Assembly (NCBI GenBank): GCA_964578935.1
Contig: CAZOEW010000018.1
Location: 6,340-30,339 of the forward strand
Origin: an uncultured Desulfobacterales bacterium
Lineage (GTDB): Bacteria > Desulfobacterota > Desulfobacteria > Desulfobacterales > SURF-7
Reading direction: 5' to 3'
Length of the DNA: 24,000 bases
Below, piece by piece: positions 21,324 to 24,000 of this stretch; position 1 is the stretch's first letter; each line of letters starts with the position of its first letter. A program made the position numbers and the translations under genes. The notes beneath the pieces are model-generated. The model saw only the letters and a list, made by a program, of their open reading frames with translations, had not been told where the DNA came from and did not search any database.

Positions 21324-21409
21324 ACGCCTTTGTGTGAATTGCCGGACAGGGTTTTATAAAAATTATCTTTTTTATCAAATGGTTATTTTGACGATTGCGG
21401 GCGTGTCCC

Positions 21410-21673
21410 ATGTTTTTCAATTTTAAAAAAAACCAGGTCTGGGCAGAGAGTTCCCACATCATCATGCAGATCGGTTTGACAATGGCCGGATGCATTGTTT
21501 TTTGTTTTTTCATTGGCCGGTTTCTGGACAACTGGCTTGGCACAAAGGGAATCTTTGTTACAATTTTTACCCTGCTGGGCGTGGTGGGCGGCGGGAATGT
21601 GGTTTACCGCCAGATTATTGCGGTGACGGAAAAGAAAGACAAGGATAACGGGTCGGCAGATGGAAGCGATTAG
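21410..21673 (+). CDS. atpZ: AtpZ-like small membrane protein (ATPase_gene1 family)
   Basis: The protein has two predicted TM helices with the family-like core IGLTMAGCIVFCFFIGRFLDNWLGTKGIFVTIFTLLGVVGG. It is first in the atp cluster. The start is ambiguous among TTG 21395, ATG 21410 and ATG 21464. Confidence 0.65.
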   Translation: MFFNFKKNQVWAESSHIIMQIGLTMAGCIVFCFFIGRFLDNWLGTKGIFVTIFTLLGVVGGGNVVYRQIIAVTEKKDKDNGSADGSD

Positions 21674-22043
21674 GCAGACGCAGAAGCGGTATTGCTCCAG
21701 CGCGTTAAGCTTTGCAGTTATGGCGGGCTTTATTTTTTACCTGATCGGAATGATTCCAGTCTGCAAAGGGCTGGTACTCGGAACTCTTTTCAGTATTTTA
21801 AATTTTATTCTGATGGGAGAGACCCTTCCCATGAGAATTGATCGAACAAAGGGCAGAACATTTTTTATTGTCCTTGGGTCTATTTTTTTCAGATATATAC
21901 TGTTAGCCATACCGATTTATATGGCAATCAAAAATGAACAGTTTGACTTTTTTTCCGTGATTGTCGGAATTTTTATGGTTCAGATAATGCTGTTAGGGGA
22001 TCATGTTTCGGCTATTATCTTTTCCCGTTTTAAAAAAAAATAG
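21660..22043 (+). CDS. atpI: ATP synthase protein I (AtpI)
   Basis: The 127-aa protein has four hydrophobic segments and sits directly upstream of atpB, as in canonical atpIBE operons. It overlaps the atpZ end by 14 nt. Confidence 0.7.
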   Translation: MEAIRQTQKRYCSSALSFAVMAGFIFYLIGMIPVCKGLVLGTLFSILNFILMGETLPMRIDRTKGRTFFIVLGSIFFRYILLAIPIYMAIKNEQFDFFSVIVGIFMVQIMLLGDHVSAIIFSRFKKK

Positions 22044-22055
22044 GAAATGTAAATC

Positions 22056-22730
22056 ATGCAGGAATTGGGTAAAATACACCAACTGATTGTACCATTTTTC
22101 GGTCATACATTAACATTCAACCTTGAAGTCATTCTGTTTACCTGGATTGTAATCGGCCTGTTGCTTCTGTTCGGTATTTTTGCAACCCGCAGAAAGAGCA
22201 TGGCGCCAGGTCCGATGCAGGTTGTCGGTGAACTTTTTGTTGAAAATCTTTTCAATCTTGCCGAAGAGACCCTGGGCAAGGAGATGGCCAAAAAATATGG
22301 ACCCCTGGTATGCGCGCTGTTCATGTTTCTAGTGCTGTCCAACTGGCTTGGAATCATTCCCCATCTTGAGGAACCGACAAAAGACCTGAACACACCGCTG
22401 AGCTTAGGCATTATGGGGTTTTTTATTGCCCACTATGCCGGTATCCGAACCCGGGGAATTAAAAACTATCTAAAAGGATACGTGGAGCCTTTTTTTTTCA
22501 TGCTTCCCCTTAACATTATCGGGGAACTGGCGAATGTGGTTTCCATTTCGTTTCGTCTTTTTGGAAATATCATGGGCGGTTCCATTATTATTCTGGTGGT
22601 ATCGTATCTGACGTACAGTGTGATTCTGCCGCCTTTTTTAAATGCTTTTTTTGGACTTTTTGTCGGTACGATTCAGGCGTTTGTTTTTACGATGCTTACT
22701 ACGGTTTATATATCACTGCAGGTAAAATAA
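22056..22730 (+). CDS. atpB: F-type ATP synthase Fo subunit a
   Basis: The essential-Arg block ISFRLFGNIMGG is present, along with LSNWLGIIP and the C-terminal QAFVFTMLTTVYI. An SD (AGGAAA) lies upstream. Confidence 0.92.
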   Translation: MQELGKIHQLIVPFFGHTLTFNLEVILFTWIVIGLLLLFGIFATRRKSMAPGPMQVVGELFVENLFNLAEETLGKEMAKKYGPLVCALFMFLVLSNWLGIIPHLEEPTKDLNTPLSLGIMGFFIAHYAGIRTRGIKNYLKGYVEPFFFMLPLNIIGELANVVSISFRLFGNIMGGSIIILVVSYLTYSVILPPFLNAFFGLFVGTIQAFVFTMLTTVYISLQVK

Positions 22731-23708
22731 ATGATAGAATTCAATATTCAAAACTGGATTTCGATGGCCTCTTTTATGGGTGCCGGTATTGCCATGGGCT
22801 TCAGCGCCATCGGATCCGCAATCGGTGAAGGGTATACAGCTGCAGAGGCAACTACAGCAATCTCACGGAATCCGAAGTTATCGGATGAAATTTTAAAGAT
22901 GATGTTAATGGGCCAGGCCATAGCGGAATCTGCAGCGATTTTTGGTCTGGTTATCGCGATGATGCTTCTTTTTACCAAATTTCCCCATATCTCCTGGCTT
23001 ACAGTAAGCGTTTTAATCGCTGCAGGATTTTCCATGGGTCTCGGGGCTATCGGATCGGGAGTGGGATCCGGTTTGGCTTCGGCTTTAGCCTGTAAAGGAC
23101 TGGCAAGACAGCCTGGAGCAAAAAGTACTCTTCAGGCAAACATGTTGATCGGTTCCAGCATTGCTCAAACACCGGCAATTTTTTCTCTGGTAACCGCACT
23201 TATTTTGATTTTTACGGATTTTTCAGCCCGTCCGATCTCGCCTACATGGGCGGCGATTCTAGGAGCCGGATTTGCTTCGGGTTTTGGAGCTATCGGTTCC
23301 GGACTTGGAGACGGTCTTGTTGCCGGAGCATGCTGTGAAGGCACGGCGCGTCAGCCCATGGCCGCAAAAGCGGTATTAAGTGTCATGTTTTTGGGAATGG
23401 CGGTTACCGAGACAACAGCCATTTACGGTCTGCTGGTCAGTTTCATTCTGATATTCAGAGAGTCTGCTGCAACAGAAGCCCTTGCACCGGCCATGGCGCT
23501 CCTTGGGGCGGGTCTTTGCATGGGTATTGGTGCCATCGGACCCGGTATTGGAGAGGGATTTACCGCCCGCAGCGCGGTAGGCGGGATTGCAAAAAATTCA
23601 GAAGCGAGAACGGAACTCACACGTGTAATGCTTGTGGGTCAGGCGGTTTCGGAGTCAACCGGTATCTATTCACTGGTTATCGCGCTGGTTTTGATTTTTG
23701 TTGTCTAA
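22731..23708 (+). CDS. Fused F-type ATP synthase c subunit with four tandem hairpin modules in one polypeptide (about 8 TM helices)
   Basis: The ATG directly follows the atpB TAA (22728-22730). The 325 aa are uninterrupted and contain four ~70-aa units, each with a G-rich helix 1 (GAG..MG.GAIG.G.G.G), a polar loop and helix 2 (G.A..E/Q....(F/Y).L.......F). The units begin at aa 12, 92, 173 and 254 and are joined by 10-11-aa linkers. Confidence 0.85.
   Translation: [325 protein letters not shown]
22764..22973 (+). repeat. c-subunit hairpin module 1 (aa 12-81)
   Basis: Sequence: [70 protein letters not shown]. The helix-1 residue is E33 (22827-22829) and the helix-2 carboxylate is E66 (22926-22928). 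Confidence 0.8.
23004..23213 (+). repeat. c-subunit hairpin module 2 (aa 92-161); the carboxylate is replaced by Gln
   Basis: Sequence: [70 protein letters not shown]. The helix-1 residue is S113 (23067-23069). The position aligned with the ion-binding Glu is Q146 (CAA, 23166-23168). Confidence 0.8.
23247..23456 (+). repeat. c-subunit hairpin module 3 (aa 173-242)
   Basis: Sequence: [70 protein letters not shown]. The helix-1 residue is D194 (23310-23312) and the helix-2 carboxylate is E227 (23409-23411). Confidence 0.8.
23490..23699 (+). repeat. c-subunit hairpin module 4 (aa 254-323)
   Basis: Sequence: [70 protein letters not shown]. The helix-1 residue is E275 (23553-23555) and the helix-2 carboxylate is E308 (23652-23654). 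By my hand alignment, 32 of 70 positions are identical to module 1. Confidence 0.8.
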
Positions 23709-23823
23709 GAAAGGAGATGGCAGTGTTACCGTTTTTCCGGATTATCCGGTATGGCAATAAGACAAGATCGTTTTGAAACGGTTTCGAAGGAAATACAATT
23801 AAACAGGTTAGGAGGATTAGGGT

Positions 23824-24000
23824 ATGGCTATCGAAGGTGCAGATATTGTAAAAGCAGCGGCATTTTTAGGTGCGGGAATTGCCATGGGGCTCGGTGCAAT
23901 CGGACCTGGTGTAGGTGAAGGAATGGCAGCCGCAAAGGCTTGCGAAGCCATCGGCAGAAATGCAAAAGAGGCGGGTCTTTTAACCAGGACCATGCTTGTG
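23824..24000 (+). CDS. atpE: F-type ATP synthase Fo subunit c, conventional single hairpin; the 3' end lies outside the window
   Basis: An SD (AGGAGGA, 23810-23816) precedes the ATG at 23824. The translation is MAIEGADIVKAAAFLGAGIAMGLGAIGPGVGEGMAAAKACEAIGRNAKEAGLLTRTMLV..., open to the window edge. This covers helix 1 and the loop of a c subunit, and helix 2 is cut off. Confidence 0.9.
   Translation, partial: MAIEGADIVKAAAFLGAGIAMGLGAIGPGVGEGMAAAKACEAIGRNAKEAGLLTRTMLV

Follow-up and report, generated by a model that had tools for sequence, protein, structure and literature searches.

The rotor ring of an ATP synthase sets the number of ions used per ATP, and with it whether life near the thermodynamic limit makes ATP. 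The only well-studied F-type ring of mixed subunits, with one two-hairpin subunit, is that of Acetobacterium woodii; the deposit PDB 4BEM has nine c2 chains and one c1 chain, in agreement with the published nine-plus-one ring. In Clostridium aceticum a fused atpE1 is followed by exactly one atpE2, and the second hairpin is without a carboxylate (PMC7911925). For Fusobacterium nucleatum a two-carboxylate Na+ site was described, with ligands E32, V63, E65, S66, T67 and Y70 (PMC3692424). Here we analyse a locus at the 3′ end of a 24,000-nt stretch of DNA from an uncultured Desulfobacterales bacterium (assembly GCA_964578935.1, contig CAZOEW010000018.1); the whole stretch is called the window. The locus carries a gene for a fused four-hairpin c subunit (c4), followed by a gene for a single-hairpin c subunit (the monomer, c1; the A. 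woodii subunit of the same name is always given with its species). Judging from the genes, the best-supported reading, and to us a rather probable one, is that the monomer is made in excess and joins the fused subunit in one hybrid ring.

Co-occurrence of the fused and the single-hairpin c genes

A scan of one genome per species for relatives of c4 produced at least 557 encoding stretches, almost all from Desulfobacterales (Desulfosarcina variabilis and Desulfatibacillum alkenivorans among them). Gene order was surveyed in the best 80 loci among these at least 557 stretches. Nearly all of the 80 have the order atpZ, atpI, atpB (a), fused c, one monomer, b′ and b; the loci without a monomer are those where the contig ends.

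We then determined co-occurrence in 301 sampled Desulfobacterales genomes (∼100 genera), each searched with the fused c and with the monomer; as the genomes share kinship, the counts are descriptive. A fused c was present in 173 genomes, a c1-type monomer in 180 and both together in 172. The single genome with a fused c and no monomer has a contig end 91 nt past the fused gene. Eight genomes had a monomer and no fused c above the cut-off; two were inspected: one (G164) has a three-hairpin fused gene below the cut-off, and the other (G046), in which the a gene adjoins c1, truly lacks a fused gene. Fused c is essentially never found without the monomer, and the monomer can occur alone. Given this strict co-occurrence (172 of 173 genomes), c1 and c4 most likely build one mixed, Na+-driven ring.

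The features of the operon in the window are as follows.

21395-21673, + strand: gene for an AtpZ-like small membrane protein (PF09527, 58.1 bits), first gene of the Fo-only operon, position kept in nearly all 80 loci
21660-22043, + strand: atpI (PF03899, 32.8 bits), position conserved
22056-22730, + strand: atpB, Fo a subunit of 224 aa (PF00119, 173.5 bits)
22731-23708, + strand: fused four-hairpin c subunit c4 of 325 aa, with four PF00137 stretches
23709-23823, + strand: untranslated spacer of 115 nt between c4 and the monomer gene
23810-23816, + strand: strong Shine-Dalgarno sequence AGGAGGA, 7 nt ahead of the ATG (duplex with the anti-Shine-Dalgarno sequence −10.2 kcal/mol)
23824-24000, + strand: first 59 codons of the single-hairpin c monomer c1 (PF00137), cut by the contig end

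The TAA stop codon of atpB (22728-22730) abuts the ATG of c4 at 22731 with zero gap, and c4 itself ends with TAA (23706-23708). An earlier reading made from the sequence alone (the sequence-only reading) had given the c4 stop, the 115-nt spacer, the AGGAGGA, the ATG at 23824 and the zero-gap junction of atpB and c4; each of these coordinates was verified in the sequence. The locus is best explained as part of a second, Fo-only atp operon, predicted to be of Na+ type and to have the order atpZ-atpI-atpB-c4-c1-b′-b.

The window is the final 24 kb of contig C18 in a draft assembly of 304 contigs (95% complete, G+C 46%), and the contig stops at window base 24000. The c1 open reading frame (ORF) ends at 59 codons because contig and window end at that base. 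The 59-aa fragment matched PF00137 in a Pfam profile search with 37.7 bits (curated cut-off 24 bits; E-value 2.6e-9) over profile positions 1-41 of 60. The visible part takes in helix 1 with GxGxGxG, the GRNAKE loop and the beginning of helix 2; the sequence G-V-G-E-G puts a Glu at residue 32, aligned with Glu32 of 3ZK1. The remainder of the gene was sought in three ways: the last 15-127 bases of C18 are shared by no other contig of the assembly, a scan of the contig ends of the assembly found the helix-2 motif at none of them, and a search of the protein collection with the fragment gave no 100% match (best 95%).

A complete gene was found in G001, a metagenome-assembled genome (MAG) from Desulfobacterales of the same genus as the source genome. 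In G001, atpZ, atpI and atpB (224 aa) are followed by c4 (325 aa) and, after a gap of 107 nt, by a c subunit of 82 aa; b′ (151 aa) and b (193 aa) come next, with unrelated genes downstream of b. Its syntenic monomer is identical to the window c1 in 58 of 59 residues (95-99% identity at the DNA level) and is complete, with 82 aa, a full hairpin and a helix 2 containing Q-A-V-S-E-S-T-G-I-Y. Among 74 Desulfobacterales loci in which monomer ORFs were compared, 72 have an intact ORF, and the intact ones have helix 2 and its carboxylate. Both G-E-G in helix 1 and Q-A-V-x-E-S-T-G-I-Y in helix 2, Glu65 included, are present in all orthologues compared; at the level of sequence the c1 orthologues hold the complete F. 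nucleatum-type ligand set (E32, V63, E65, S66, T67, Y70). The claim that a normal c subunit starts at 23824 is thus borne out by the 82-aa orthologue and by the 72 intact ones, and helix 2 and its carboxylate are there in G001, the nearest relative that can be read. Sequence comparison has shown the ORF at 23824 to be the 5′ part of a bona fide c subunit, predicted to have 82 aa when complete.

The loop of the monomer (23950-23967) reads G-R-N-A-K-E in the window and in G001; almost all other orthologues have N-P there. In known F-type rings the loop of the c subunit faces the central stalk.

Draft assemblies frequently break just 3′ of the fused c gene or within the monomer gene, as at the end of the window (other cases are L058, L079, L103, L119, L134 and contigs C290/C238 of G007). 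Cross-species conservation of c1 DNA was considered as the cause and found no support: mean pairwise DNA identity is only 76.8%, and exact shared words of at least 21 bases occur in 13% of pairs, not above the figure for c4. The breaks may come from tandemly repeated monomer genes or from differences between strains at the c4 cassette.

Ion sites, relatedness and translation signals of the two genes

Conservation, ion sites and Shine-Dalgarno sequences were compared over 67 loci. The c4 of the window has the helix-2 Glu in modules 1, 3 and 4; module 2 has a Gln instead (Gln146), and the pattern of sites is EE SQ DE EE. Gln replaces the carboxylate in module 2 of all 67 loci and in module 3 of 57, while modules 1 and 4 almost always retain both carboxylates. 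Therefore, in the commonest type of c4 two sites are live, those of modules 1 and 4, on either side of two dead hairpins; the window c4 is of a minority type, with Asp/Glu restored in module 3 and hence three live sites.

Mean pairwise identity is 89.8% for the monomer and 71.5% for c4. In a tree of hairpins each c4 module forms a well-supported clade with many invariant residues, a glycine packing motif included; hence the fusion is old. The monomers group with module 4 (support 97/92) on very short branches. The visible part of c1 is identical to module 4 in 27 of 52 positions and to module 1 in 25 of 51, and the full-length monomer of G001 in 49 of 75 positions to module 4 (37/72, 30/69 and 31/69 to modules 1-3). 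In helix 2, module 4 and the cognate monomer are 83% identical; for modules 1-3 the figures are 46-61%. The sequence-only reading had found the monomer most similar to module 4; the margin is narrow on the visible part and becomes clear with the full-length orthologue and the tree.

Fused forms of other lengths make up a graded series (L126-L130, L117, L121, L133): three-hairpin forms have 240-243 aa and five-hairpin forms 403-416 aa, each followed by the same 82-aa monomer, and six-hairpin forms have about 485 aa. Only the first site is live in the five-hairpin forms (c5), which c1 always follows; a single live site is also found in some c4 and in three-hairpin forms (c3), again with the same monomer downstream. 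Subunits of three to five hairpins that keep a single live site are unlikely to run a ring alone, and this too speaks for co-assembly with the monomer. Two uncultured bacteria that are more distant have c3 and c1 inside a complete F1Fo operon, which goes on with delta and alpha.

Comparison of the source genome with G001 (L038) gave 92-100% DNA identity for atpZ, atpI, atpB and the monomer gene and only 54-84% for c4. The divergence begins and ends abruptly, at the atpB stop and within the spacer, and the number of live sites differs as well (three in the window c4, two in that of G001). In this comparison c4 has the look of a cassette that was exchanged.

The fused gene has no constant position: it stands before atpZ in two loci of Desulfosudaceae (L111, L114) and after b in one (L112), and all three loci with a moved c4 retain both genes. 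In G007 the a gene adjoins c1, and c4 is on a different contig. One MAG contig (L051) has the fused gene alone beside an unrelated gene. G239 (L132, contig C701) has two tandem monomer genes 3′ of c4, which encode identical proteins and share 236 of 246 bases; the contig then ends.

Translation signals of the two genes differ consistently. The Shine-Dalgarno sequence of the monomer averages −10.1 kcal/mol versus −4.6 kcal/mol for c4 and is the stronger of the two in 65 of the 67 loci; nearly every locus compared has a monomer site of the AGGAGG type. The c4 site in the window is weak (CAGGU, −3.9 kcal/mol), and such sites sit inside the end of atpB. The gap between the a gene and c4 is typically 0-4 nt among relatives, and the gap between c4 and the monomer varies (mostly 30-200 nt, median 59). 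What had been noticed in the window, a monomer with a strong ribosome-binding site of its own beside a c4 coupled with zero gap to atpB, is thus a conserved trait.

We found no significant folding of the spacer (23709-23823) relative to shuffled sequences (z −0.99), and no promoter-like or terminator-like sites in it. With these results and the unconserved length, a regulatory RNA, a promoter or a terminator in the spacer was rejected. Therefore, c4 and c1 are most likely co-transcribed and differ in translation.

Ring composition and the supply of F1

If the two subunits share a ring, c1, translated in excess, would make up most of it, and one or a few c4 molecules would be built into this c1-rich ring. 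The c1-like last helix of module 4 would pack against a c1 neighbour. The dead c4 hairpin or hairpins would lower the number of Na+ ions per turn, hence per ATP, as in the F/V-hybrid ring of A. woodii. The resulting Fo sector would draw on the single F1 of the cell alongside the housekeeping Fo.

With regard to F1, b′ and b are the last genes of the operon in relatives, and F1 genes are absent from it. Apart from this operon, the source genome carries an I-a-c cluster on C45 and, on C100 and C185, an F1 operon that includes b and b′ genes of its own and is nearly identical to the F1 operon of G001. Most relatives have a single F-type gamma, with c4 present or not, and two carriers of the operon, Desulfosarcina variabilis and Desulfatibacillum alkenivorans, have one F-type alpha/beta pair each. 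With one F-type F1 set in related genomes, and judging by the absence of a second F1, this Fo probably shares F1 with the housekeeping Fo.

Several points weigh against this picture. In most c4 forms two dead hairpins lie side by side, in c5 forms four, and rotation of a ring past such a run is without precedent. The operon of G046 (L122, contig C2) has c1 only, in the order atpB, a 20-nt gap, monomer, b′ and b, and no fused c was found elsewhere in this 97%-complete genome; so c1 is probably able to make up a ring by itself, with c4 dispensable. The support for co-assembly and for the c1:c4 ratio is genomic rather than at the protein level, Shine-Dalgarno strength being a proxy for protein output, and c1 of the source genome itself is unreadable beyond codon 59. 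As for the sharing of F1, the second F1 is missing from genomes that are mostly drafts, and the source assembly has a contig (C304, 2.5 kb) with a second gamma and beta, 37% and 67% identical to the resident copies, respectively, and a G+C of 53% versus 46% for the genome.

We considered C304 as the missing F1 of this operon and rejected it on account of its deviant G+C content, the 37% identity of gamma and the single gamma in relatives; C304 is probably contamination. Another contig, C257 (3.8 kb, 63% G+C), has genes in an order of N-ATPase type (epsilon, two small membrane proteins, a, c, b and the start of alpha) and is either contamination or a transferred island.

Two separate homomeric rings, c1-only and c4-only (e.g. 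of three c4, which gives 12 hairpins), could use the same a subunit under different conditions. The c1-only operon of G046 speaks for such an arrangement, and the window c4, which keeps three of four sites, makes a c4-only ring conceivable here. We nevertheless judge it unlikely: the two genes belong to the same operon, the stretch between them holds neither a stable fold nor a site resembling a promoter or terminator, and c4 is coupled to a single-copy a gene and has a weak ribosome-binding site. A fused c without c1 was seen in just one of 173 genomes, at a contig end; c5 with one live site in five and those c4 with one in four would make very poor homomeric rings.

Alternatively, c1 alone could form the rotor, with c4 as an accessory protein or a drifting paralogue outside the ring (e.g. 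an assembly aid, or a protein with another role in the membrane). c4 does evolve faster than c1, loses ion sites, can be unlinked or moved, is absent in G046 and appears to have been swapped between two close relatives. Still, more than half of the genomes sampled from the order have c4 as an intact ORF of constant length, and its four modules form well-supported clades with many invariant residues, those of the glycine packing motif included. Loss of a carboxylate is rare in modules 1 and 4, and the closest solved relative of c4 is a proven ring subunit. A role of c4 outside the ring is thus quite improbable in our estimate. That the monomer gene is a truncated or broken copy, its defect hidden by the contig end, is hardly credible: c1 is readable for only 59 codons and the rest was found nowhere in the assembly, but the readable part is all but identical to an intact syntenic gene of the same genus, and in a draft of this kind it is simpler to assume that the rest was lost where the contig ends.

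Co-assembly of c1 and c4 may be part of a wider scheme, which we offer tentatively. Desulfobacterales may possess a second, exchangeable, Na+-coupled Fo (a, a ring of constant c1 and variable c3-c6, b′ and b) that competes for the single F1. The fused subunit, in which one to three sites are live and as many as four consecutive hairpins dead, would then be an interchangeable cassette that sets the Na+/ATP ratio and would have been exchanged even within a genus.

Comparison with described rotor rings

Among solved structures the monomer was best matched by two A. woodii subunits in PDB 4BEM, c1 with 113.5 bits (both hairpins) and c2 with 75.4 bits, followed by the Na+ c11 rings of F. nucleatum and Ilyobacter tartaricus. 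The parallel with A. woodii drawn in the sequence-only reading is strengthened by this result. The order a, fused c, monomer c and b is common to both systems (in A. woodii the two-hairpin atpE1 and the monomers atpE2/atpE3), as are a fused subunit with a hairpin in which Gln stands for Glu and a monomer with the Na+ motif. The Desulfobacterales system differs in a fused subunit of four hairpins here and three to six in relatives, of which one to three have a live site, in one monomer gene instead of two, and in Glu32 instead of Gln32 in helix 1; its operon stops after b′ and b without F1, and its ring composition is predicted from genes. Of the A. woodii-like arrangement, then, the fused c beside a monomer holds, and the pair of monomer genes does not: one is the rule, with G239 the sole tandem pair seen. 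Likewise, of the further c copies and atpF sought downstream, b′ and b do follow in relatives; extra c copies are not the rule.

As for the marks of an F/V-hybrid rotor, the locus has a multi-hairpin c beside a single-hairpin c, a pair conserved in the 74 loci, and at least one hairpin without a carboxylate (Gln146); a two-hairpin fused subunit (V-type-like, 16-18 kDa) in a complete F1Fo operon is what it does not have, which makes it a variant of the A. woodii type. With its single monomer, C. aceticum is a closer parallel to the usual Desulfobacterales layout than A. woodii, but its fused subunit has two hairpins, its F1Fo operon is complete and its motif is Q...ET (here E...ES).

The c11 ring of F. 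nucleatum (PDB 3ZK1, PMC3692424) has an identical set and numbering of ligands and a nearly identical helix 2; the ring is homomeric, however, and the operon has no fused c. The c11 subunits of I. tartaricus and Propionigenium modestum (PDB 1YCE) are close relatives (70.1 bits) with the same helix-2 motif but have Gln32 instead of Glu32 and also form homomeric rings.

Fused hairpins with some sites lost, as found here, are also known from c subunits of archaeal A1Ao enzymes (13 hairpins in Methanopyrus kandleri; two-hairpin forms in many archaea), which differ in being A-type, in a fused subunit that makes the ring on its own with no partner monomer gene and in a sequence that is not closely related. 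The atp operons of Alphaproteobacteria are split, with an Fo operon atpI-B-E-X-F apart from the F1 operon. This generally known arrangement resembles ours in that an Fo-only operon holds I, a, c, b′ and b. The alphaproteobacterial operon, however, encodes the only Fo of the cell; the operon described here is an addition to the housekeeping I-a-c cluster (C45) and to the F1 operon with b and b′.

A full-text literature search, whose coverage excluded the hybrid-rotor review of Brandt and Mueller (2015) and the 4BEM paper, gave no account of a Desulfobacterales F-type c with three to six fused hairpins and a partner monomer. The pair is present in more than half of the sampled genomes of an order of globally important marine sulfate reducers, cultivable species included. 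Questions thereby made testable are how a ring gets past several dead hairpins in succession, what controls its composition and whether two different Fo sectors can be served by one F1. Compared with A. woodii, the same principle would be seen here in a larger and graded form, with fused subunits of different lengths partnered with one highly conserved Na+ monomer.
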